From positions 96,001 through 160,000 of the IMG/VR virus record IMGVR_UViG_3300023174_000047: a stretch of 64,000 nucleotides of DNA. One strand, 5' to 3'. Below, piece after piece: positions 36,697 to 47,888 of the stretch. The stretch comes from a virus (Duplodnaviria; Caudoviricetes). A program made the translations under genes and the position numbers. Positions within the stretch are counted from its first letter, which is position 1. Each line of letters opens with the position of its first letter. Under the pieces are notes generated by a model. It saw only the letters and a program-made list of their open reading frames with translations, did not search any database and was not told the origin of the DNA.

Positions 36697-38199
36697 ATGG
36701 CAAACAAAAAAGGCGATTATTATCTCAACAATCCTGCTCTACCCACAAGTAAAGCAGAGTTTGAGTATACATCTGAGATGATTAAAAATATTAAGAAATG
36801 TGAACAAAATTTGCTTTTCTTTGCAGAGAATTATTTTTACATCATAGATCCAGATGAAGGTAGAACCGTAATTAAACTATACAAGTATCAAAAAGATGCA
36901 CTGAGAATGTTGCGAGACAATAGATACAATTTGCTACTTGCAAGTCGTCAAATTGGCAAAGCTCTTGATGTAAATACACCCATCCCCTCACCAGATGGAT
37001 GGAAGACCATGGGCGAACTCAAAGATGGTGATCAAATATATGCAGCAGATGGTAGCATTTGCAATGTAGTAAAAGCACATGATGTGATGCATGATCGCAA
37101 ATGTTACAAAGTTGTTTTTAATAATGGTGAGGAGATTATTGCTGATGCGGATCATTTGTGGTTTACGCAGAGTCGATTGGAGCGACGCGCAAAGCAACAA
37201 GGTACTACAAAAACAACACAACAGTTGTTGAATACTCTTAAGACACATGGTGATGAGCCGAATCATAGAATTCCAGCATGCATTGCTGGTGTTGTAGGCA
37301 AGCACCAGCAATTACCTATGGATCCATATGTATTGGGACTATGGCTTGGAGATGGATGCAGTGATAGCAGATGCATTACAGCTAACAACCTTACAAACAA
37401 TAAACATATTCCTGATGTTTATCTCATGGCTTCAAGAGAGCAAAGATTAGAGCTGCTTAGGGGTCTGATTGATAGTGTTGGATACATGACGAAGTCAGGT
37501 GTTTGTCAGTTTTATAATACAAATCATACACTTGTTGAGCAGACCAAACAACTTGTAGAAAGTTTAGGATATAAAGTAACATCCAAGACCCATGTACCAA
37601 CCTTAAATGGTGTTGAATGCGCTGTTTGTAGCAGCATTACTTTCACTCCCATTGAGCCTCATATAAACAGCTCAAAACATAGAGCACAATGGCACTACAT
37701 CAAAGATATTCAGGAAGTTGAATCAGTTGCTGTTCGATGCATTACTGTTGATAGCAAGGACAATCTCTATTTGTGTGGAAAGCAATACATACCTACACAC
37801 AACACCACCCTGCTAACCATCTATGCATTGTGGATTGCATGTTTCAATCAAGATCAAAACATTATGATTGTTGCTAACAAAGAGAGCACAGCCATTGAAA
37901 TCTTCCGAAGAGTGCGTCTTGCTTATGAACAAATGCCAAACTGGCTCAAGCCTGGTGTTGACGAATATGGCAAGACGAGCATGATGCTCAACAATGGATC
38001 AAGAATTGGTATCAGTACCACAACTGGTTCTGCTGCTCGTGGTACATCTCTAAACTGTGTTAATGGTAATAGCATTATTACGGTTAGAAATAAAACCACG
38101 CAAGAGGTTGAAAATATAACAATTGCTGAGTTGCATCAAAGATTAGAAAAAAATACCTGGAAAACTAATTTAGTGGAAGATTCACCCAGTTTGATATAA
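36697..38199 (+). CDS. 17: Terminase large subunit, N-terminal fragment (cis intein plus N-half of a split intein)
   Basis: FAENYFYIIDPDEG, LYKYQ, SRQIGK|intein|TT, VANKESTA, LPNWLKPG-like MPNWLKPG, and RGTSLN followed by an intein block A. Confidence 0.93.
   Translation: MANKKGDYYLNNPALPTSKAEFEYTSEMIKNIKKCEQNLLFFAENYFYIIDPDEGRTVIKLYKYQKDALRMLRDNRYNLLLASRQIGKALDVNTPIPSPDGWKTMGELKDGDQIYAADGSICNVVKAHDVMHDRKCYKVVFNNGEEIIADADHLWFTQSRLERRAKQQGTTKTTQQLLNTLKTHGDEPNHRIPACIAGVVGKHQQLPMDPYVLGLWLGDGCSDSRCITANNLTNNKHIPDVYLMASREQRLELLRGLIDSVGYMTKSGVCQFYNTNHTLVEQTKQLVESLGYKVTSKTHVPTLNGVECAVCSSITFTPIEPHINSSKHRAQWHYIKDIQEVESVAVRCITVDSKDNLYLCGKQYIPTHNTTLLTIYALWIACFNQDQNIMIVANKESTAIEIFRRVRLAYEQMPNWLKPGVDEYGKTSMMLNNGSRIGISTTTGSAARGTSLNCVNGNSIITVRNKTTQEVENITIAELHQRLEKNTWKTNLVEDSPSLI
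36961..37803 (+). mobile_element. Cis intein (281 aa), class-3 type, with a degenerate LAGLIDADG endonuclease
   Basis: Starts with Ala (ALDVNTPI); block B DADHLW; block F VRCITV; ends PTHN|T; endonuclease remnants LGLWLGDG and LRGLIDSVG. Confidence 0.88.
38056..38196 (+). mobile_element. Split intein N-fragment (47 aa)
   Basis: CVNGNSIITVR...ITIAELHQRL followed by a stop codon. Confidence 0.88.
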
Positions 38200-38207
38200 A
38201 TAAACTG

Positions 38208-39872
38208 GTGGTTATAGAAATAAAACAAACTGCAGATGCAGCTGCAAAATTAAGCAAAAAGAGTTTCGATGACCACCAGCTTAGTTTTATAGTAAAACAT
38301 ACACTATACAGTGATGACATAACTTTTGCACAAAATGTTTTTAATATCATCAACGGCAATGTTGTTTGGCTCTGCAAGAATTGCAGCAATGCATTAAAAT
38401 TTAGAGGATACAAAGATGGATATGGGTTGTTTTGTTCAACGAAGTGTGCAAATACAAGCAATGTTGATAAGATTAAACAGACACACATCAACAAATATGG
38501 CAAACCGTGGATAGGTTCAAAAATTTGCAGAGAGTATCAAGCTAAGTTAAACTTGCAGAAGTATGGTACGGAGATTTACCAACAAACTAATGAGTTTAAA
38601 CAAAAATTGCAAGACACATGGATCAACAAAGATAAAGAAGCATTGATGGCAAAGATGGTGCAAAAAAATTTAGAAAAGTATGGGACTGATCACTATTTTG
38701 AAACCGATGAATTCAAAAACAAATCACAACTCACATGTCTTAAAAAATATGGTGTCAGTAATGCAATGCAAAGTGCTGAAATTCAGAACAAAGCAAAAGC
38801 CAACAGTGCACTCAAATATATTGATGATATTCAAGAGCAGTGCAATGTAAAGTTGATTGATGAATATAATGGTTGTGCAAAGTATACAAAATATCAGTGG
38901 CAATGTTTAGTATGCAACAACAGCTTTTATGCAGATATATCCATCGGTCACCGCCCCCGGTGTTTCAATTGCAATCCCAGACAAGGAACAAACATTGAAG
39001 AGCGGTTGTTTGAATTTTTAAATGAATGTGGTATTTCATATATTATTCGCAGCAGACAGGTGATATCGCCCTATGAGGTGGATATTTTTATTCCACAAAG
39101 CAATGTTGCCATTGAAGTCAATGGATTAATTTGGCATAGTCTTAGATCTGGTGGCAAAGATAAATTGTATCATGTTAATAAATTTCAAATGTGTCTAGAC
39201 AAGGGCATAAAACTCATACAGCTATATGAGGATGATATACTTGATGAGGATAAATTTAACATCATCAAAAGTAGATTGTCTGTTGTTCTTAATATGCAAG
39301 GCATGCAGCGAATTTATGCTCGTAAATGTGAATTTAAAAAAATCAATGCAACAGATGCAAAAACATTTTGTAATGAAAACCATCTTGATGCTTACTGCAA
39401 TGCCCAATTTAATTATGGGTTATTCCACAACAATAAACTTGTTTCCGTTGCTTGCTTCTCAACAGTTAAATCGAGAATCATATTTCGCCAAAGCAATCAG
39501 CCTGCTGCACATGAATTAATTAGATTCTGCTGCATAAAAAATACTCAGGTCATAGGTGCATTGAGTAAATTTGTTAAAAATCATGCAAACCTACACCAAA
39601 CCAACATTATTTCATATTGCGATTTGAATTGGGGTAGAAGTACATCTTATATTCATGCAGGATTTGAATATATAAAGCAAACTAGCCCCGGCTTCTACTA
39701 CATTAAAAACAACAAAAGACATCATAGATTTACTTTTGCTAAGCACAAGCAAAAGCAATTATTTGAAAACTTTGACCACAATTTGACAGAATTTCAAAAC
39801 TGTTTTAACAATAATATTGATGTATTGTTTAATGTGGGTTGCGATAAATATATGTATAAATGGCTGACCTAA
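38208..39872 (+). CDS. Free-standing Vsr-like (Hef-like) endonuclease with a C-terminal Mom-like GNAT domain (GTG start)
   Basis: EERL...EVDIFIP...AIEVNGLIWHS...LIQLYEDD; KYG repeats; C-terminal IYARKC...ELIRFC...SYCD. Confidence 0.8.
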   Translation: MVIEIKQTADAAAKLSKKSFDDHQLSFIVKHTLYSDDITFAQNVFNIINGNVVWLCKNCSNALKFRGYKDGYGLFCSTKCANTSNVDKIKQTHINKYGKPWIGSKICREYQAKLNLQKYGTEIYQQTNEFKQKLQDTWINKDKEALMAKMVQKNLEKYGTDHYFETDEFKNKSQLTCLKKYGVSNAMQSAEIQNKAKANSALKYIDDIQEQCNVKLIDEYNGCAKYTKYQWQCLVCNNSFYADISIGHRPRCFNCNPRQGTNIEERLFEFLNECGISYIIRSRQVISPYEVDIFIPQSNVAIEVNGLIWHSLRSGGKDKLYHVNKFQMCLDKGIKLIQLYEDDILDEDKFNIIKSRLSVVLNMQGMQRIYARKCEFKKINATDAKTFCNENHLDAYCNAQFNYGLFHNNKLVSVACFSTVKSRIIFRQSNQPAAHELIRFCCIKNTQVIGALSKFVKNHANLHQTNIISYCDLNWGRSTSYIHAGFEYIKQTSPGFYYIKNNKRHHRFTFAKHKQKQLFENFDHNLTEFQNCFNNNIDVLFNVGCDKYMYKWLT

Positions 39873-40201
39873 ACAATCATATTTCTGTTTTTAATTCTGA
39901 GTATGAAATTTTAACACATGAAGGTTTTAAGGATTTCAAAGGCGTAATTAGGGGCGATAATCACAACAAAATTGAGTTGGAATTGTCAAATGGACGCAAT
40001 TTGATATGCACACCCAAACATAAAATATATAAGCACGATATGCAAATTGCATTTGCAGAAGATTTGCATGCAGGTGATGAATTGTATAATGGCATTGAAA
40101 TTAAGAAGAAAACCCAATTTACAGACAGCAACAGTGTGTATGAAATAATACACATACAAGATAATCATTCATATTTGGTAAATGATGTTTTGTGTCATCA
40201 A
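39860..40201 (+). mobile_element. Split intein C-fragment (114 aa) ending in His-Gln
   Basis: EILTHEGFKDF, block B CTPKH, block F VYEI, block G YLVNDVLCHQ|C. Confidence 0.88.
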
Positions 40202-41404
40202 TGTCTCATTCTAGATGAGCTTGCATTCATTGATCCACCTTCCATCATGGATGATTTTTGGCGATCAGTGTGGCCAACCATTTCTCGATCCAAACACTCC
40301 AAAGTCCTCATTGCCTCTACACCCAAAGGCACAGATAACCTGTTTTATCAGCTGTATGACGGGGCCATCAAAGGTGAGAATGGCTTTGCAAGCATGACCA
40401 TCAAATGGGATGCAGTTCCTGGTCATGATGAAAAGTGGAAACGTGAACAAATCAAACAAATCGGTAGCGTGGAATCATTTATGCAAGAATATGATTGCCA
40501 GTTTCTTCAAAGTGGTGAATCGTCCATTGACTTGAGCACATTTGATAAACTCAGGCAATATTGTACAACACCTCAGTTTTTTCTTGAAAGCGACAAATAT
40601 ATGATATGGAAATCACCACTACCAGATCGTCTGTATGCAGTTGGTGTTGATGTTGCTGAAGGAGTAGGTCAGAATTATTCTGTTATTCAAATTCTTGATA
40701 TCACCGATTTGACCAGCATTGAGCAAGTTGCTGTTTACAGAGATAATACCATTGCACCAGCACAATTTACAACAAAATTGCATGAAATAATGCAGCAATG
40801 GGGAAACCCCTTGGTTCTCATTGAAAGAAACAACTGCGGTGCTCAGGTTGTTGATAATCTGCGGAATATACATCAGTATGAAAATATTGTAAGCTATGGG
40901 GCTGAACTAGCTGGCCGCAAAAAAGATTTTTTAGGTGTTGTTGCTCACACCAACACCAAACAGCGCGGTGTTCGCAACATGAGATACTGGGTCAATACAC
41001 TCAACTGTGTGCGTTTCAATCATTTACAGACTATTCTTGAGCTCAAAGACTTTGTATGCAAGCCCAACGGAACATGGAGTGCGCGTGGCAGTGGAGTGGA
41101 CGATTGTGTCATGAGCCTCATTTGGGCACTGGTGTTGCTTGATAATGACCCACAGTATGGCATATGCGGCAATTATTTTGAAGTTGTTGATTTGGATGAA
41201 AATGGCAAACCTAGATCCATCAAGCCTTTGGATTACGGCTTAAAGTACTTCACATCAAACAATAAAAAATATGATTTGTTTGGCAATGCATTGGAAGCCA
41301 CTAAATACTCAGATGCAGCAAGCTTGCCCATTGTGTTTGGCAGTTCTACCAATCAAAGCAGCGAAGTAAGTGACCTTGAATTAGAGGGCTGGACAATATT
41401 ATGA
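39860..41404 (+). CDS. 17: Terminase large subunit, C-terminal fragment (split-intein C-half, Walker B and nuclease domain)
   Basis: After HQ|C: LILDELAFI, IASTPKG..N.FY, FMQEYDCQF, GVDVAEG, IERNN.G and DDCVMS. Confidence 0.93.
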   Translation: MADLNNHISVFNSEYEILTHEGFKDFKGVIRGDNHNKIELELSNGRNLICTPKHKIYKHDMQIAFAEDLHAGDELYNGIEIKKKTQFTDSNSVYEIIHIQDNHSYLVNDVLCHQCLILDELAFIDPPSIMDDFWRSVWPTISRSKHSKVLIASTPKGTDNLFYQLYDGAIKGENGFASMTIKWDAVPGHDEKWKREQIKQIGSVESFMQEYDCQFLQSGESSIDLSTFDKLRQYCTTPQFFLESDKYMIWKSPLPDRLYAVGVDVAEGVGQNYSVIQILDITDLTSIEQVAVYRDNTIAPAQFTTKLHEIMQQWGNPLVLIERNNCGAQVVDNLRNIHQYENIVSYGAELAGRKKDFLGVVAHTNTKQRGVRNMRYWVNTLNCVRFNHLQTILELKDFVCKPNGTWSARGSGVDDCVMSLIWALVLLDNDPQYGICGNYFEVVDLDENGKPRSIKPLDYGLKYFTSNNKKYDLFGNALEATKYSDAASLPIVFGSSTNQSSEVSDLELEGWTIL

Positions 41405-41979
41405 CTGACATCGTACAATCACCATTTAATAAAGCACGTGTTGATAAGTTTACTATGGTAATAAACTTACCACCTGCATTAAAAAGCATCAACAGCAAAT
41501 TCACACGCAGCAATAAAAATGTAAACATTGATGCTCTGCAATTTTCTGTGTTTGGCACAGTAATTCCTGACATTGTTGTGCCTGCAGTTGAGACAAGATT
41601 TGGAGGCAGCACTATTTATGTATCATCTCACAGCAGACCATCATTCCCGCCTGTAACCATCAACTTCACCATTGATAATGAATTTAATAATTATTGGTGC
41701 ATATATCAGTGGCTTAATTTAATGCGAGATGAGAGAGAAGGTGTATTTGGAGTTGTGAATAGCAGAGGACTTGCAGGTGCAGAAGCCGTTTTAGATGAGT
41801 ACACCACAACTTTTACGTTGTATGCTAAAAATGAATTCAACAACAACATCATTAAATTTGAATTTCTCAAAGCTTTTCCTACAAAATTGGGCAGCATTTC
41901 TTTAAACTATCAAGATAGCAAAGAAATCCCTTGCTCATTCGATTTTGTATTTTCCAACATTACTTCTACTCTGCTTTAA
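41401..41979 (+). CDS. 3: Tail completion / tube terminator, T4 gp3-like
   Basis: IPDIVVP and INFTIDNEFNNYWCIYQWL resemble the gp3 F.VDEE...W..MYEW segment. Confidence 0.65.
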   Translation: MTDIVQSPFNKARVDKFTMVINLPPALKSINSKFTRSNKNVNIDALQFSVFGTVIPDIVVPAVETRFGGSTIYVSSHSRPSFPPVTINFTIDNEFNNYWCIYQWLNLMRDEREGVFGVVNSRGLAGAEAVLDEYTTTFTLYAKNEFNNNIIKFEFLKAFPTKLGSISLNYQDSKEIPCSFDFVFSNITSTLL

Positions 41980-42009
41980 ATTTATGCTTGATTTTTCATA
42001 AATATCTAC

Positions 42010-44682
42010 ATGGCATCAAGAATTATCAATTCCCCCGGGGTACAAATTAATGAAATCGATGAAACAGCTATCCAAGCCAATATTACTGGCACAGATATTC
42101 TGATTACTGGTTTTGCAAGCAAAGGTCCGACAGATGAAATTATCAGCGTCTCTTCTATTACAGAATTTGAGCTAATTTTCGGTGCACCAACTAATGCTGC
42201 AGAGCGTTATTTTTACTATTCTGTAAAGCCCTTGTTTGGTACTGGAGCTAATTTGCTACTCAGCCGTCTTCCTTATGGTGGAGGCAATGGTGATGGTTTT
42301 GGCTCTCAATACAGCGCAATTGTTTATCCAGTTGTTGCAGTATCTGGTAATCCTGTCAACATTAATCTTGCTGATATTACAGCAACAGCTACAGCAGGTA
42401 CTCCACTCACTGTTGCTGGTGGCGTGTCAGCTGTATCAGTGGTATCATCAGGTCGATATTATGCAACTGCACCTGCGGTTACAGTATCAGCACCACAGAC
42501 ACCTGGTACAACAGCAGCATTTACAGCAAATATAACAACTGTTGGTACAGTATCATCACTTTCTATTACACAAGCTGGATCTGGATATACAGCTGCACCA
42601 ACAATAACAATTGCTGCACCAAGCTACAGCAACATCGGTGGTATTGTGTCTACACTTAATTCAACAAGTGTTGATTCATATGTTCTCGGCAAGCCAATTC
42701 ACTTTACGCTAACTAAATCACAATACTTGTCATGCATCAATGGTGAAGCATTCACATGGCAGTCTAATTCACTTGCATCTTCTTCTTTTGGTAGAACAGC
42801 GACTGGTTCAACATCTGGTACAGCAGCTAACATCAGCACATTTGCTGACTTTGGCAAGGCAGGCTTGATCATCTTCAACAAAGCACAAACAACCATCAAT
42901 GACAAGTATGAAGGTTATTACATTGGCGTAATTGACAATTCCAATGCAAATCCTGCAACTCAGTTTGATGGCATTGTAACAGCAACTACTTTTAATACTA
43001 CTGTTACAAATACAGGTAGTGCAGATATAGGCACACCAATTCCTGATGCTCGTCTCAACTTTACACTATCAGGCAGCAATTTAACAAATGGATCACTTTC
43101 TCAGATTATTGAGAATGCTGCATCATTCAACATTGGTACAAAACAATACAACGACTACCTCACAATAGGTGTATTCAAGCTTCGTCAGAGCATCTTCTCA
43201 ACTAATACAGTCAAGCTCGATTACTTGCTTGAAGAGAGGTTTGTTGCAAGCATGGATTATTACCGTCAGCGCACACCAGAGAACGGAGGACCAATTGCAT
43301 CAGCTTACATCGGCAATGAAGTGGAAGATGCATCCCGCAACATTACGGTTATGGTTAATGATAACATATCAAATCGCACTTCATCCACATGGCTTGATGC
43401 AAATGGTATACCAACCAAGAGTGTGAGAATGTTATCACATGAACTTGAAACACAAGTCACAGACAGCACTGTTTTTAATCAAGTATCAGGTACAGTTGGA
43501 ATCACTGCTGCTGCATTCAATGCTGCAAAAACAGCACTTTCAGGCAAGTATGCTGATGATTTAATTGGTCTTGGTGCATATGTAGATCCAACACCAACAA
43601 CCAAGACAATTGGCAGCTTGCCTGGTAAGCTTGATCGTATTTTTCAATTGCTTGAAAATGATGAACTGTATGACATTGATATTTCCATTGAGGCAGGTCT
43701 TGGCACAATTTATGCAACAACATGCGCAGCTCGTACGCCATATTATGATGATACATTGATGAATCCTACGCTGCAGCAAGCAATTGGCTACTTACAGACA
43801 ACCTTCAACTACTCAGCACCAGCAGATGATACTTTGGATTTGAGAGGCAACTACAATACTATATTTGCTAGATTTGCTGACTTTGCACGTGATAGAATGG
43901 ATCACATTTTCATTGCTGACCCAATTCGCCACATTCTTGTAACAGGCATCAACTCAAAGACATTGTATGATTCAAACAAGAGCTGGTCTCAGTATGTGTT
44001 TTCACCGCTGCGTCATCAGTTTGAGCTTGCAAACACAAGCTATGCAGCAGCATATGCTAACTGGGCACGTGTCCAAGATACGTTTGCACAAATAAATGTG
44101 TGGGTGCCATTTTCGGGATATGTTGCAGCAGATTATGCACGCTCGGATAGAGATTTTGCGTATTGGTCTGCACCAGCAGGATTCCGCCGCGGATTAGTAA
44201 GTGAAGTTGATGACATTGCAATCACACCTAATCAGAAACAGCGCGATGATTTGTACAAGTTCAATCTCAATCCAATTACACAGTTTGTGAGAGAAGGCAT
44301 TGTGATATACGGTCAAAAAACTATGCTCCGCACACCAAGTGCATTTGATCGAGTTAATGTGCGCCGCTTGTTTATTATACTTGAGAAGCAAACAAAAGCA
44401 ATTGCACGTTTTTATGTATTTGAACCAAATTCATTATACACACGCACTCGCTTGGTAGATGACTTGACGCCAAACTTTGAAGCTGCCAAGACTGCAACAA
44501 TCAATCAAGGTATTTATGATTACATAATTGTATGCGACGATAGGAATAATACACCTGCAGTCATTGATGCAAATGAATTGGTTGTCGACATTTACATCAA
44601 GCCAGTTCGTACCGCAGAGTTTATCTTGGTAAACTTCCATGCATCAAGAACTGGAGCAAACTTCCAGGAAATCTTACGATAA
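42010..44682 (+). CDS. 18: Contractile tail sheath protein, T4 gp18-like
   Basis: SPGVQINEID, GFASKGP, WSAPAGFRRG, GQKT, FDRVNVRRLF, FEPN and IYIKP.RTAEFI. Confidence 0.96.
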   Translation: MASRIINSPGVQINEIDETAIQANITGTDILITGFASKGPTDEIISVSSITEFELIFGAPTNAAERYFYYSVKPLFGTGANLLLSRLPYGGGNGDGFGSQYSAIVYPVVAVSGNPVNINLADITATATAGTPLTVAGGVSAVSVVSSGRYYATAPAVTVSAPQTPGTTAAFTANITTVGTVSSLSITQAGSGYTAAPTITIAAPSYSNIGGIVSTLNSTSVDSYVLGKPIHFTLTKSQYLSCINGEAFTWQSNSLASSSFGRTATGSTSGTAANISTFADFGKAGLIIFNKAQTTINDKYEGYYIGVIDNSNANPATQFDGIVTATTFNTTVTNTGSADIGTPIPDARLNFTLSGSNLTNGSLSQIIENAASFNIGTKQYNDYLTIGVFKLRQSIFSTNTVKLDYLLEERFVASMDYYRQRTPENGGPIASAYIGNEVEDASRNITVMVNDNISNRTSSTWLDANGIPTKSVRMLSHELETQVTDSTVFNQVSGTVGITAAAFNAAKTALSGKYADDLIGLGAYVDPTPTTKTIGSLPGKLDRIFQLLENDELYDIDISIEAGLGTIYATTCAARTPYYDDTLMNPTLQQAIGYLQTTFNYSAPADDTLDLRGNYNTIFARFADFARDRMDHIFIADPIRHILVTGINSKTLYDSNKSWSQYVFSPLRHQFELANTSYAAAYANWARVQDTFAQINVWVPFSGYVAADYARSDRDFAYWSAPAGFRRGLVSEVDDIAITPNQKQRDDLYKFNLNPITQFVREGIVIYGQKTMLRTPSAFDRVNVRRLFIILEKQTKAIARFYVFEPNSLYTRTRLVDDLTPNFEAAKTATINQGIYDYIIVCDDRNNTPAVIDANELVVDIYIKPVRTAEFILVNFHASRTGANFQEILR

Positions 44683-44696
44683 CAAGCAAATTGAAG

Positions 44697-44732
44697 GGAG
44701 CGGAGCTAACAAAGCTTCGCTCCTTTTTTTTT
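44697..44732 (+). terminator. Intrinsic terminator after the sheath gene
   Basis: GGAGCGGAGC-TAACAAA-GCTTCGCTCC followed by a T9 tract. Confidence 0.9.
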
Positions 44733-44776
44733 GTTAAATCTTTATGTTTATATAGTATTATGCAATAAATAGCAAT

Positions 44777-46534
44777 ATGTCTTTGATAGAAGAAATACAG
44801 AGCAATTTATACACAAAAACAAACAAAATTAATACTGCCATAATAAGGCAAGATTGGTTTAAAAAATCTAATTTGTATGCAGATATAATGAAAGAGACAT
44901 CCTTTCTTGACAATGACGTATGCTTTGCAGCGCGAATATTTTGCATAGTCAATAATATCAAGAGCATGCCAGCGTGCCCTGTAACCGGTAAAAGTGTTAA
45001 GTGGTTACCTACAAAACATAGATTTGCCATTGCTGCTGGCAGATCAAATGCATCTAAAATTAAAAAAATTGATAATGCAAAACTATCTCAAAGCCTCAAA
45101 GCATCAAAAGCATTAATCAAAAGTAACTTCTACAGCCTATACAAAACAAATAAATTTAATATTGTCAGTAGAGAAAAATGCACAGACTTTATAAAGAGCA
45201 GATTGGAACACACCGATCACGGAAGAAAGCATAATTTTGTAGATACATCTATACTTAAAAAATATCATGATGAGTGTTGCAGCATTATTCTACATACACA
45301 GCATCCATTATTAGATGATAATGATATAAACTGGAGTGAAAGGTTTTTTCTTTTGTATAATAATGATGTCCCGAAACTATGTAATTATGATCCCACACAA
45401 AAGGCAAAATTTTGCAATTTCTTAGCTGGGTACAATAACAATAGTTCTGCACAGGCAAGGAATAAAAACACATTAAAAATAATCAAGCAATCCATTGAGT
45501 ATCAAAACTTCTCTATTTTAAATGATATAAACTCACATCAACAAGAGTATCAATTGAGATGCAATGTCTGTAATAGTATTTTACAGCGAAGATTGACAAA
45601 TGCGCGCTGGAAAGATATATTTTGTGCCAAATGCAACAATGTTACCGTGGGATCGTCTCGTGCAGAAGCAGAGATATCTGCTTTTCTGCAAAATGACTGC
45701 AACATGCAGGTTGAGAGATTATATGACTTGCCACCTAGTGGAATAGAAATCGATATATTTCTACCACAGAAAAACGTTGGTATCGAGCATCACGGCTTAT
45801 TGTGGCATAGTTTTGGTTCTTGCTTCCCCGACAATGCAGATGTTGAAAGTGTAAACAAATTTAAGCATAGAAATAAGCGGGATATATGCATGAGCAACAA
45901 TGTACAGTTGTTGCAGATTTTTGAAAATGAATGGATTGATAAAAGAAACATTGTTGAGTCAATGATGCGTAGCAAGTTAGGAATATTGCAAAATAAAATC
46001 TATGCTCGCAATTGCACAATACAATGCATCACAGCAAAACAGAAAAGTATTTTTCTTAATAATAATCACATACAAGGCAATGACAATTCACAAATTGCAA
46101 TTGCTCTAATTCATGAAGGTGACATTGTTGCAGCAATGACTTTTGGTAACCGCAAAATAACTGCAAATAAAACTTTTGAACTCATAAGATTTTGCTGCAA
46201 AACAAACACAAGCGTTATTGGAGGTGCCTCTAAATTATTAAAATACTTTACAAAAAAACATAATGTATCATGCATTACAACATATGCTGATTTGAGATTT
46301 TGCTTTGATGGTTCGTTTTACAAAAACTTAGGCTTTAAGCACATCAGAACAACACCACCTGCATACTGGTACACAGATACAAAGACTGTGATGCACCGCT
46401 CCAACTTTCAAAAACATAAATTAGTAAAACAGGGTGATGATTTGAGTCTTACAGAATGGGAAATTATGAAAGAGCGTGGGTGGCGTAGAATATGGGATTG
46501 TGGTCACATGGTTTTTGAATATAAATATTCATAA
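44777..46534 (+). CDS. Second Vsr-like (Hef-like) endonuclease with a C-terminal Mom-like GNAT domain
   Basis: SRAEAEI...EIDIFLP...GIEHHGLLWHS...LLQIFENEW; IYARNC...ELIRFC...GGASKLL...TYAD...YKNLGF...PPAYWY. Confidence 0.8.
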   Translation: MSLIEEIQSNLYTKTNKINTAIIRQDWFKKSNLYADIMKETSFLDNDVCFAARIFCIVNNIKSMPACPVTGKSVKWLPTKHRFAIAAGRSNASKIKKIDNAKLSQSLKASKALIKSNFYSLYKTNKFNIVSREKCTDFIKSRLEHTDHGRKHNFVDTSILKKYHDECCSIILHTQHPLLDDNDINWSERFFLLYNNDVPKLCNYDPTQKAKFCNFLAGYNNNSSAQARNKNTLKIIKQSIEYQNFSILNDINSHQQEYQLRCNVCNSILQRRLTNARWKDIFCAKCNNVTVGSSRAEAEISAFLQNDCNMQVERLYDLPPSGIEIDIFLPQKNVGIEHHGLLWHSFGSCFPDNADVESVNKFKHRNKRDICMSNNVQLLQIFENEWIDKRNIVESMMRSKLGILQNKIYARNCTIQCITAKQKSIFLNNNHIQGNDNSQIAIALIHEGDIVAAMTFGNRKITANKTFELIRFCCKTNTSVIGGASKLLKYFTKKHNVSCITTYADLRFCFDGSFYKNLGFKHIRTTPPAYWYTDTKTVMHRSNFQKHKLVKQGDDLSLTEWEIMKERGWRRIWDCGHMVFEYKYS

Positions 46535-46971
46535 TGCAAAAAGAATATAGACAAGGCATATACAAACCCATCAACAATCAAAAATACATTGGTGATAAAT
46601 TACCTTTTTATCGTTCTGGATACGAGCTCAAATTTATGCGCTGGGCTGATGCAAATCCCAATGTAATCAAATGGGGAAGCGAGAGCATCATTATTCCATA
46701 CAAAAGCCCCATTGACGGAAAAATGCACCGATATTTTGTCGATAATGTTGTCATTATTAAAGAAGGTGAGCAAATTAAAAAATACCTCATTGAGATCAAG
46801 CCATACAAACAGACTCTACCTCCCTCGGAACACGGCAATAAAAAACAATCCACAATATTATATGAGCATGCAACATATGCCATTAACATGCAAAAATGGA
46901 AATGTGCTAAAGAATGGTGCAAGCAACACAATTGGGAATTTTTAATATTAACAGAAAAAGAGCTGCCATAA
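46534..46971 (+). CDS. 4: Head completion nuclease, T4 gp4-like (TnsA-like fold)
   Basis: YRSGYE, WGSE.IIIPY.SPIDGKMHRYFVD, IEIKP and ILTEKEL. Confidence 0.92.
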   Translation: MQKEYRQGIYKPINNQKYIGDKLPFYRSGYELKFMRWADANPNVIKWGSESIIIPYKSPIDGKMHRYFVDNVVIIKEGEQIKKYLIEIKPYKQTLPPSEHGNKKQSTILYEHATYAINMQKWKCAKEWCKQHNWEFLILTEKELP

Positions 46972-46979
46972 ATAATATT

Positions 46980-47888
46980 ATGCAGGATTTTAAGAATTTT
47001 TACAAACAAGAGGTTATAAATGAATCAATAAAGGATTTTATTCGCAACCCCAAAGCACTCATTGCAACCGCGTTATTTCTCGGCATTGTTGATCAAGCAT
47101 ATGTTATTCCAAGTATAAAAAGAATCAGCAAAGAGGTGCAGGAAAAATTAAATAAAATGCCACCCGAACGAGCTGCACAGATTCAGCAAAAAGCTATTAA
47201 GACTACCAATACACCATTAGTTGATAAGCTGCTCAAGCAAGCCATTGAAGCATCAACAATTAAAAGAGAAACACCGCAACATGCCATGCCTATAAAAGAT
47301 ACACAACAAATGTCACAACAAATATTACCCATGGATAAGCAAAAGAGTCAGCAGTTCTATAAAGATGCATTGAAATACATCAAACAAAATGAACTTGGTG
47401 GTACAAATATTAATTACCGCATGCCATATAAAGACCACAAAGGTTATGAAACCATTGGAGTAGGACACCTCGTAACAAGCAAAGAGAAAAAAAATAAAAT
47501 ATTTGATAACGGCATTTCCGAGCAGGAAGTTTTAGATTTATTTGAAAAAGATATTCAATCAAAACTAGCAACAGCGCGCCGATTGTTTAAAACATATGAT
47601 GAATATCCTGATTATTTAAAAATTAAACTTTTAGATGGTATTTTTAGAGGTGATGTATCTGGATCCCCAAAAACCATTGCGCTCATCAATGCAGGCAAGT
47701 GGACACAGGCAGCAGCTGAATTTCTAGACAGCAAAGAATATAAAGATGCAGTCGAAAATGGATATGGAACAGGTCCGCGCATGAAAAAAATTGCAGATGC
47801 AATGTTGAGCATGGCAGAAGAACAAAAATCACCTGATGTACCTGCAACAAATTCACCATTACTACCAGAAACAACCCCATTTTTCTAG
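46980..47888 (+). CDS. T4-type (GH24) lysozyme with a long N-terminal extension
   Basis: NE......YKDHKGYETIGVGHL and W.QAAAEFLDS; start at 46980 by promoter spacing. Confidence 0.88.
   Translation: MQDFKNFYKQEVINESIKDFIRNPKALIATALFLGIVDQAYVIPSIKRISKEVQEKLNKMPPERAAQIQQKAIKTTNTPLVDKLLKQAIEASTIKRETPQHAMPIKDTQQMSQQILPMDKQKSQQFYKDALKYIKQNELGGTNINYRMPYKDHKGYETIGVGHLVTSKEKKNKIFDNGISEQEVLDLFEKDIQSKLATARRLFKTYDEYPDYLKIKLLDGIFRGDVSGSPKTIALINAGKWTQAAAEFLDSKEYKDAVENGYGTGPRMKKIADAMLSMAEEQKSPDVPATNSPLLPETTPFF

Follow-up and report, generated by a model that had tools for sequence, protein, structure and literature searches.

Two Hef-type homing endonuclease genes of a T4-like phage with a Mom-family GNAT domain

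Hef of T-even phage U5 (Sandegren, Nord and Sjoberg, 2005, as cited in PMC2988022 and PMC3239194) is described as a homing endonuclease cleaving nrdB (PMC2988022). The same two articles place 'Hef-like homing endonucleases' in T4-like, ViI-like, Campylobacter and jumbo phages. The prototype of the EDxHD homing endonucleases is I-Bth0305I (PDB 3r3p; PMC3239194). Free-standing Vsr-like endonuclease genes flanked by split intein halves occur in fractured genes, among which a gp17-type terminase locus is already included (Dassa et al., 2009; PMC2677866).

Mom of phage Mu is a GNAT-fold protein that catalyzes Gly-tRNA(Gly)-dependent N6-carbamoylmethylation of adenine in dsDNA (PMC13219725). Karambelkar (2020) proposed a Y49/D139/Y149 triad and classed H48 as an acetyl-CoA-binding residue (PMC7261163); R111 is specific to Mom and not a general GNAT residue (PMC7261163). 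The iron/acetyl-CoA mechanism was replaced in 2026 by Gly-tRNA(Gly)-dependent transfer, for which R111, S124 and R151 are essential (PMC13219725). As the first-pass annotation of the present locus had suspected, fusion of a Mom-like domain to a nuclease had been noticed computationally before (Iyer et al., 2021; PMC7824862).

Genes, insertion sites and expression signals

The window is a 64,000-nt stretch (positions 96,001 to 160,000 of IMG/VR record IMGVR_UViG_3300023174_000047) from an uncultured T4-like phage with a genome of ~204 kb. ORF1 (38208-39872, + strand, 554 aa, GTG start) and ORF2 (44777-46534, + strand, 585 aa, ATG start) have exactly the boundaries given in the first-pass annotation. 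Both consist of a variable zinc-ribbon N-terminus, an EDxHD/Vsr-like nuclease and a tail of ~185 aa, and they are 32% identical across the nuclease-plus-tail core, which rules out a recent duplication. The features of the locus are as follows.

36697..38199, +: large terminase N-terminal fragment, with a contiguous LAGLIDADG intein (36961-37803), ending in a short split-intein N-half (38056-38196)
38195..38202, +: late-promoter-like motif TATAAATA, 5 nt upstream of the ORF1 GTG, sharing bases with the stop codon that ends the preceding terminase fragment
38208..38870, +: ORF1 N-terminal variable region, aa 1-221, with a CxxC...CxxxC zinc ribbon and four 'KYG' repeats (Pfam DUF7487, E 4e-21)
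38871..39290, +: ORF1 Cys4 zinc ribbon and EDxHD (Vsr-like) nuclease core, aa 222-361, catalytic D292, E303, H310, E341
39291..39872, +: ORF1 Mom-family GNAT domain, aa 362-554, and stop codon; pocket H392, R439, S453, D472, Y481
39860..41404, +: large terminase C-terminal fragment, starting with a long split-intein C-half (39860-40201) that ends His-Gln before the +1 Cys at the Walker B motif
42010..44682, +: tail sheath gene, followed by ORF2, as by ORF2-like genes in relatives L016 and L009
44697..44732, +: terminator-like hairpin read from the sequence (10-bp stem, 7-nt loop, T9), 3' of the sheath gene and upstream of ORF2
44764..44771, +: late-promoter-like motif AATAAATA, 7/8 of the consensus, 5 nt upstream of the ORF2 ATG
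44777..45532, +: ORF2 N-terminal variable region, aa 1-252, unlike the ORF1 N-terminus
45533..45979, +: ORF2 Cys4 zinc ribbon and EDxHD nuclease core, aa 253-401, catalytic D326, E337, H344, E383
45980..46534, +: ORF2 Mom-family GNAT domain, aa 402-585, and stop codon; pocket H431, R471, S485, D505, R507, Y515

The ORF1 N-terminal region is presumed to be a DNA-binding module; the corresponding region of ORF2 (aa 1-252) has no Pfam family match. The shared layout and Vsr-like nuclease core noticed in the first pass are borne out by motifs in both ORFs, and so is the remark that such proteins are usually labelled Hef-like: tblastn retrieved matches in 415 phage records, and the alignment to U5 hef spans 93% of ORF1 (E 1e-40). 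Both ORFs match PHROG 3339 'homing endonuclease' (E 1e-91 to 1e-97), and the nuclease family profile matches I-Bth0305I (3r3p, E 3.7e-9), with the nuclease D, E and H invariant in 84 sequences. ORF1 and ORF2 are thus ordinary members of the known Hef family, within the EDxHD (Vsr-like) family. Their identity to U5 Hef is 27-33%; megablast of ORF1 against the phage collection and phmmer of whole ORF1 against PDB sequences gave no match. Jumbo-phage genomes hold up to 10 copies of such genes. A third EDxHD nuclease gene, without the tail, is present in the same genome as ORF1 and ORF2.

A fractured terminase gene surrounds ORF1, which is flanked at the Walker B site by the two halves of a split intein. 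The split is asymmetric (N-half 47 aa, C-half 114 aa; the intein begins with Cys1 and ends with His-Gln, after which comes the +1 Cys), and Pfam Intein_splicing matches to the halves are weak. Residues 454-500 of the terminase N-fragment and 1-114 of the C-fragment have no counterpart in 15 relatives, and relative L002 has a single 564-aa terminase ORF. As the halves flank ORF1, the terminase could be rejoined by protein trans-splicing. The combination of split intein and endonuclease gene occurs in none of the 15 relatives, and the ORF1 site is without insertion in 13. ORF2 occupies the sheath/tube junction; the sheath and tube genes are adjacent in five relatives, and two others (L016 and L009) carry an ORF2-like gene directly 3' of the sheath gene. 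Comparison of these genomes shows a sporadic presence of insertions at both sites. Substitution patterns show ORF1 to be under purifying selection, with dN/dS of 0.06-0.09 in each of its three parts against a 95%-identical relative, which rules out decay to a pseudogene.

The late promoter that the first pass had placed 5 nt before both start codons is present as a motif at each, the ORF2 copy being the imperfect one. The exact octamer TATAAATA shows no enrichment across the window (9 copies against 6.35 expected); the signal there resides only in the shorter ATAAATA at a fixed spacing from the start codon. Of 37 ATAAATA copies in the window, 20 stand 5-9 nt upstream of the start codon of long ORFs, the motif thus being a genuine signal in this phage. 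The ATAAATA-N5-start arrangement is common to the terminase, sheath and tube genes, and ORF1 and ORF2 are apparently expressed together with late virion genes.

The Mom-family tails

Sequence and structure comparisons confirm that the tails of ORF1 and ORF2 are true Mom-family GNAT domains, as the first-pass annotation had claimed. The ORF1 tail matches Pfam Mom (PF25680) over residues 375-525 at 39.3 bits (E 7e-10), above the gathering threshold of 27.1 bits; the ORF2 tail stays below it (20 bits, E 6e-4), but matches PHROG 1384 'Mom-like' (E 2.5e-9) and can be aligned with the ORF1 tail from end to end. In structure searches Mu Mom (8bv8) was the best match for both tails. For the ORF1 model (AF2, pLDDT 92.3), Foldseek gave E 1.1e-7, and VIA-align placed 8bv8_B first (Z 13.5), with 151 residues aligned versus ~130 for other GNATs; the ORF2 model (AF2, pLDDT 94.7) gave E 7.2e-8. 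Helices at tail positions 151-157 and 167-173 form a two-helix insert between the last strands, which matches the essential HTH-like insertion of Mom.

Profile comparisons depend on what is compared. With hhalign, the tail family aligned to the Mom family (114-sequence alignment) over 177 columns (E 2.9e-7), whereas against the single Mu Mom sequence the match was weak (probability 25%) with the His misaligned. The tail profile searched against PDB sequences did not reach Mom, and hit only glyphosate N-acetyltransferase (2bsw, E 0.0034). The same tail is present in U5 Hef (tail HMM, E 9.7e-53; H398, R437, S451, Y475), where the Pfam Mom model finds no match to it at E <= 0.1; Pfam alone therefore under-reports the fusion.

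The residues equivalent to Mom H58/D149/Y159 are H392/D472/Y481 in ORF1 and H431/D505/Y515 in ORF2, numbered exactly as in the first pass, and those equivalent to R111 and S124 are R439 and S453 in ORF1 and R471 and S485 in ORF2. The His, Arg and Tyr are kept in 270/270 homologues, among them 12 whose nuclease motif is broken or missing. Only six tail columns are invariant, and three of these are the equivalents of H58, R111 and Y159. The S124 equivalent is kept in 100/122 homologues, and the D149 equivalent is Asp in 117/122 and Asn in the rest; Asn stands at this position in ~12% of members, including U5 Hef. This conservation suggests that a working pocket is retained. The earlier interpretation of the three residues as a His/Asp/Tyr iron site does not hold: in print, the triad is Tyr/Asp/Tyr, with Leu (ORF1) or Ile (ORF2) in place of the first Tyr, and the iron mechanism proposed for Mom has since been superseded (PMC13219725).

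Other parts of the Mom site have changed in the tails. The Y59 position (L393 in ORF1, I432 in ORF2) is always Ile or Leu and never Tyr in 122 homologues, and the R151 position (N474 in ORF1, R507 in ORF2) is Arg in only 72/122, whereas Y59 and R151 are invariant in the 114 sequences of Mom proper. The Mom dimer residue W48 is not conserved. The beta4-alpha3 loop of the tails contains an invariant Gly (V-I-G-G-A-S-K, GNAT motif-A-like) that is absent from Mu Mom; this loop, together with the match to the acetyl-CoA enzyme 2bsw, indicates that the tail chemistry may differ from momylation.

Possible roles of the Mom-like domain

On balance, we consider it probable, by a modest degree, that ORF1 and ORF2 are free-standing Hef-type homing endonuclease genes whose products join a variable N-terminus and an intact EDxHD nuclease to a Mom-family GNAT domain with a working pocket, likely for acyl or aminoacyl transfer to adenine. 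The variable zinc-ribbon/repeat N-terminus would presumably place the enzyme on DNA, the EDxHD nuclease would cut the gene-less allele, and recombinational repair would then copy the gene in; the homing site would be the Walker B region within the large terminase gene for ORF1, and the junction 3' of the tail sheath gene for ORF2. The Mom-like domain would most likely transfer the acyl or aminoacyl group to adenine in the bound DNA, with aminoacyl-tRNA, as in Mu Mom, or acyl-CoA as candidate donors. Such a mark could keep the carrier allele from being cut again, or shield packaged DNA. The first-pass interpretation is upheld in part: the Mom-family tail is real and the self-protection or anti-restriction role proposed for it is putative, but the view that these are not plain homing endonucleases is not supported, given the classical homing positions, the presence/absence polymorphism and the full-length homology to the characterised U5 Hef.

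More specifically, and only tentatively, the domain may be an active adenine-N6 acyl/aminoacyl transferase tethered at the DNA site of the enzyme, marking the carrier allele or the repaired product and, given the Gly loop, perhaps using acyl-CoA, not Gly-tRNA. The absence of Y59 and W48 from the tails and the variable R151, Asn in ORF1, count against transfer. A modifier and a nuclease in one polypeptide cannot distinguish two co-infecting genomes, which also counts against a protective mark; in addition, insertion of ORF1 destroys its own target, so that ORF1 has no obvious need for self-protection.

The same substitutions would fit a catalytically silent DNA-recognition module, in which the basic helix insert and the flipped-adenine pocket extend target recognition in the manner of NUMOD/HTH modules. 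The Asn at the D149 position in some members and the conserved basic motif of the insert, where R507 is kept in 118/122, point in this direction, and I-Bth0305I-type enzymes do use accessory DNA-binding regions (PMC3239194). However, the invariant His, Arg and Tyr with the highly conserved catalytic Ser exceed what a binding surface usually preserves, the pocket is kept where the nuclease motif is degenerate or missing, and the third EDxHD nuclease of this genome works without a tail. We regard a silent module as rather unlikely.

Less probable still is a single-chain, restriction-modification-like weapon, in which the Mom domain would mark the phage's own DNA and the nuclease would destroy unmarked DNA of the host or of a superinfecting phage. 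This is the printed prediction for jumbo phages (Iyer et al., 2021; PMC7824862), and it would be in keeping with the high copy number in their genomes, the conservation of both active sites and a late-expression motif as for Mu mom. The genes nevertheless sit at homing endonuclease positions (a split intein at Walker B and a conserved gene junction), their presence is polymorphic, with the ORF2-like gene recurring at the same junction in relatives, and the prototype Hef is described as a nrdB-cleaving homing endonuclease (PMC2988022). [quoted passage not shown] Action on a non-DNA substrate (aminoacyl-tRNA or protein) via acyl-CoA, or gating of the nuclease by a domain that senses charged tRNA or acyl-CoA, is very improbable: the motif-A-like Gly loop, the tail-profile match to an acetyl-CoA-dependent enzyme and the acetylation of charged tRNA by some GNATs (PMC13219725) would allow it, but the nearest relative by sequence and fold is Mom and not the tRNA-acetylating toxins, the tails retain the DNA-binding insert and the Arg specific to Mom, and their fusion partner is a DNA enzyme.

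The interest of the preferred reading, a homing endonuclease with a putative transferase domain, lies in the role of a pocket whose His, Mom-specific Arg and Tyr are invariant across hundreds of diverse fusions. Such fusions abound in phage metagenomes. If transfer to adenine does occur, these proteins would represent a homing endonuclease with modification-based self-immunity and a new class of bifunctional homing enzyme, and a widespread, possibly common, unrecognised DNA modification would exist in T4-like and jumbo phages (>13,000 sequence clusters). As Mu Mom was shown in 2026 to transfer glycyl from charged tRNA, and as U5 Hef offers a tractable T-even model, direct testing is now possible.

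Relation to described systems

The locus brings nothing of a new kind: the literature already covers the Mom-nuclease fusion, fractured terminase genes and endonucleases of the Hef type, and Pfam already recognises the Mom domain. In our literature search no publication was found that links Hef to Mom.

U5 Hef resembles ORF1 and ORF2 in having a variable N-terminus, zinc ribbon, EDxHD nuclease and Mom-like tail in the same order, and in being a free-standing gene between conserved phage genes. It differs in its site (nrdA/nrdB, versus the terminase Walker B motif and the sheath/tube junction here) and in the Asn at the Mom D149 position, which is Asp in ORF1 and ORF2; ORF1 differs further in lying inside a split intein. 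I-Bth0305I has a homologous core with the same catalytic Asp, Glu and His, and its DNA-binding regions are likewise N-terminal to the nuclease, but it is intron-encoded and ends at the nuclease, without a Mom-like domain.

Mu Mom (PDB 8bv8; PMC13219725, PMC7261163) shares with the tails the GNAT fold, the two-helix insert and equivalents of H58, R111, S124, D149 and Y159, and shares with the ORFs a late expression signal. Unlike the nuclease-fused tails, it stands alone, and identity is 15-20%; the tails depart from it at Y59, W48 and R151, and have the Gly-rich motif-A-like loop where Mu Mom has R-N-S-E-S.

At the gene level, the ORF1 locus has the arrangement of the fractured genes, with a Vsr-like endonuclease gene standing free between split intein halves (Dassa et al., 2009; PMC2677866), and differs in its complete genome context, in the second, contiguous LAGLIDADG intein of the terminase and in the asymmetry of the split. 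The jumbo-phage Mom-REase-fold fusions (Iyer et al., 2021; PMC7824862, section 3.4.7) are the same fusion of a Mom-family GNAT domain and a nuclease, Vsr being of that fold; there, the nuclease was read as a restriction component, with no link to Hef/EDxHD homing endonucleases or to fractured genes.

Hef-type nucleases with a Mom-family tail

The source record is an IMG/VR virus genome of 203,774 bp (96% complete), and the window carries T4-like virion genes for the large terminase, tail sheath and tail tube. ORF1 (38208-39872, 554 aa) and ORF2 (44777-46534, 585 aa) are present as the first-pass annotation described them, and are the only full-length copies in the whole genome. They are divergent paralogues, sharing 32% identity across the C-terminal 330-340 residues, the N-terminal thirds being unrelated.

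A profile of the central region (84 homologues) matches the nuclease domain structure of the EDxHD prototype I-Bth0305I (3r3p, E 3.7e-9) and, weakly, Vsr (1cw0). Within the nuclease family the EDxHD residues Asp, Glu and His do not vary; the family alignment places them at D292/E303/H310 in ORF1 and D326/E337/H344 in ORF2, and by this alignment the nuclease motifs of both are intact. A Cys4 zinc ribbon lies N-terminal to the nuclease core. PHROG 3339 ("homing endonuclease") spans both ORFs end to end, and tblastn matched 415 phage records, mostly labelled "Hef-like homing endonuclease" or "hypothetical protein" and including phage U5 hef (93% of ORF1 covered). The Hef type has already been assigned to the EDxHD family (Taylor et al., 2011; PMC3239194). 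A third EDxHD nuclease gene of the same genome (L019:979-1788, i.e., G000:C1:21545-22354, outside the window) encodes 269 aa with several zinc ribbons and a nuclease core without a Mom-like tail; therefore, both architectures coexist within one phage.

The C-terminal tails of ORF1 and ORF2 are genuine Mom-family domains, with the pocket as their most conserved part. The Pfam "Mom protein family" PF25680 matches ORF1 residues 375-525 at 39.3 bits (E 7e-10; curated threshold, 27.1 bits) and ORF2 under that threshold, at 20 bits; ORF2 is matched by PHROG 1384, "Mom-like DNA modification protein" (E 2.5e-9). AlphaFold2 models of the tails (pLDDT 92.3 for ORF1, 94.7 for ORF2) find Mu Mom 8bv8 as the best solved structure (Foldseek E 1.1e-7 and 7.2e-8, respectively). 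A structure search independent of Foldseek also ranks 8bv8 first for the ORF1 tail (Z 13.5 and 20% identity over 151 aligned residues), ahead of ordinary GNATs, which align over about 130 residues. The additional residues aligned to 8bv8 form an inserted pair of helices ahead of the last strand, the place of an HTH-like insertion that sets Mom apart and that its activity requires (PMC13219725). Compared profile to profile, 122 tails and 114 Mom-proper sequences align over 177 columns at E 2.9e-7. A Mom-like domain is clearly present in U5 Hef itself, the Hef-family prototype, although the Pfam Mom model misses that tail. The tail family is very large, with 13,214 clusters at E <= 1e-3, and the nuclease is also present in 144 of 148 sampled representatives.

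Two homing loci and a start-proximal motif

ORF1 sits between two large-terminase fragments.

Features of the ORF1 locus
36697-38199: upstream terminase fragment, holding a contiguous LAGLIDADG intein (36961-37803)
C-terminal end of the upstream fragment: split-intein N-half, 47 residues from Cys454
39860-41404: downstream terminase fragment, opening with a 114-residue intein C-half

The C-half ends His-Gln and is followed by Cys and the Walker B motif. The terminase gene thus contains two inteins, the contiguous LAGLIDADG intein at the Walker A region and an asymmetric split intein (38056-40201) at Walker B. Split-intein segments are absent from 15 related contigs, none of which (0/15) has the split intein with an endonuclease gene; in 13 the terminase has no insertion at the ORF1 site (in L002 it is one 564-aa ORF), and two (L008 and L014) have only the first intein. 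The same split-intein and ORF1 arrangement is found in L020, a relative 95% identical. Dassa et al. (2009) described this layout as a "fractured gene", and their list already includes a gp17-type terminase locus (PMC2677866). In the related contig L010, a 314-aa ORF (L010:6338-7282) that matches no Pfam family interrupts the terminase at a different point, past roughly residue 239 of the C-fragment; this ORF may represent a further type of mobile insertion.

All three parts of ORF1 evolve under purifying selection (dN/dS against L020, 0.06-0.09). Synonymous divergence from L020:4001-5665 is uneven along the gene: dS reaches 0.39 for the N-terminal part and 0.35 for the nuclease, but only 0.07 for the Mom tail and 0.06 for either terminase flank. 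Such a mosaic suggests that recombination broke the gene close to where nuclease and Mom tail meet, exchanging the 5' two-thirds of ORF1.

ORF2 lies after the tail sheath gene. Sheath and tube genes adjoin in five relatives, and L016 and L009 have an ORF2-like gene (about 33% identity) immediately 3' of the sheath gene. A gene that comes and goes at one fixed junction bears the mark of a free-standing homing endonuclease. ORF1 and ORF2 are both EDxHD homing endonuclease genes of the Hef type, each at a classical homing site. Two further genes occupy the sheath-tube interval, one of TnsA-like endonuclease fold (46534-46971, Pfam E 1.6e-21) and one resembling lysozyme (46980-47888). The relatives examined have neither between sheath and tube; the whole 3.2-kb block (46534-47888 plus ORF2) looks accessory.

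A late promoter 5 nt before both starts had been proposed. The motif and spacing hold: TATAAATA lies 5 nt upstream of the ORF1 GTG and AATAAATA 5 nt upstream of the ORF2 ATG. Within the window the exact octamer is not enriched; ATAAATA occurs in 37 copies, 20 of them 5-9 nt (mostly exactly 5) before start codons of long ORFs, among them the two terminase fragments as well as sheath, tube and adjoining genes.

Examples of ATAAATA
+ strand: 36682, 38196, 39844, 41998, 44765, 46521, 46968, 47898, 48458, 52778
Minus strand: 9326, 13919, 14730, 21875, 28798, 32948

ORF1 and ORF2 therefore carry the signal found at the virion genes, which we infer acts as a late promoter. If ATAAATA is a late-promoter -10 element, it would leave late mRNAs with almost no leader; a role in translation initiation is another option. 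Immediately after the sheath gene and ahead of ORF2, positions 44697-44732 form a strong hairpin with a T9 tract that resembles a terminator, so ORF2 would need its own promoter.

The pocket and possible activity of the tail

Mom pocket residues (numbering after Silva et al., 2026) and their equivalents in the family alignment
Mom H58: ORF1 H392, ORF2 H431
Mom R111: ORF1 R439, ORF2 R471
Mom S124: ORF1 S453, ORF2 S485
Mom D149: ORF1 D472, ORF2 D505
Mom Y159: ORF1 Y481, ORF2 Y515

The residue numbers of the first-pass annotation (H392/D472/Y481 and H431/D505/Y515) map exactly to Mom H58/D149/Y159. Its reading of them as an intact His/Asp/Tyr iron triad does not stand. Karambelkar et al. (2020) assigned their proposed iron site to Tyr49/Asp139/Tyr149 in 231-residue numbering and classed His48 as acetyl-CoA binding (PMC7261163), and the iron mechanism has been superseded: Mom moves glycine from Gly-tRNA(Gly) to adenine N6 in dsDNA, followed by on-base rearrangement (PMC13219725). 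As the first Tyr is absent here and the mechanism has been replaced, the triad is the wrong criterion.

Only six columns are invariant in the 122 tails, three being the equivalents of Mom H58, R111 and Y159; the pocket Asp is kept in 117 and the Ser in 100. All 270 members (148 representatives of 50%-identity clusters included) retain His, Arg and Tyr, even the 12 with a degenerate or missing nuclease motif. Arg111 is Mom-specific and no general GNAT residue (PMC7261163). Of the seven active-site residues named in 2026, ORF1 keeps five and ORF2 six. On balance, these features favour a catalytically competent tail that would transfer an acyl or aminoacyl group to adenine in enzyme-bound DNA: the Hef-type enzyme would bind DNA, and the tail would modify an adenine of that DNA.

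Hef-type tails also differ from Mom proper. The Tyr59 position is always Ile or Leu, and the essential Arg151 is Arg in only 72 of 122 tails (Asn in ORF1), whereas Mom proper never varies at either position; the dimer residue Trp48 is not conserved in the tails and is short of invariant in Mom proper. A silent DNA-recognition or base-flipping module is conceivable but less likely than a modifying tail. In the beta4-alpha3 loop, the tails have an invariant Gly in a motif-A-like V-I-G-G-A-S-K, where Mu Mom has R-N-S-E-S, and the tail profile touches the acetyl-CoA enzyme 2bsw (E 0.0034), so the donor substrate of a modifying tail may differ from that of Mom. A non-DNA substrate or a sensing role, set against the Mom-specific Arg and insertion, is very improbable.

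Jumbo-phage proteins that join Mom to a restriction-fold nuclease have been published (Iyer et al., 2021; PMC7824862). The restriction-modification-like weapon proposed there seems improbable for ORF1 and ORF2, genes at homing sites; an adenine-modifying tail remains the preferred reading. A literature search found no paper tying Hef or fractured-gene endonucleases to Mom. The Hef family (2005), fractured genes (2009) and the EDxHD family (2011) are already published, and the finding on ORF1 and ORF2 is correct but ordinary, their kinds being already known.
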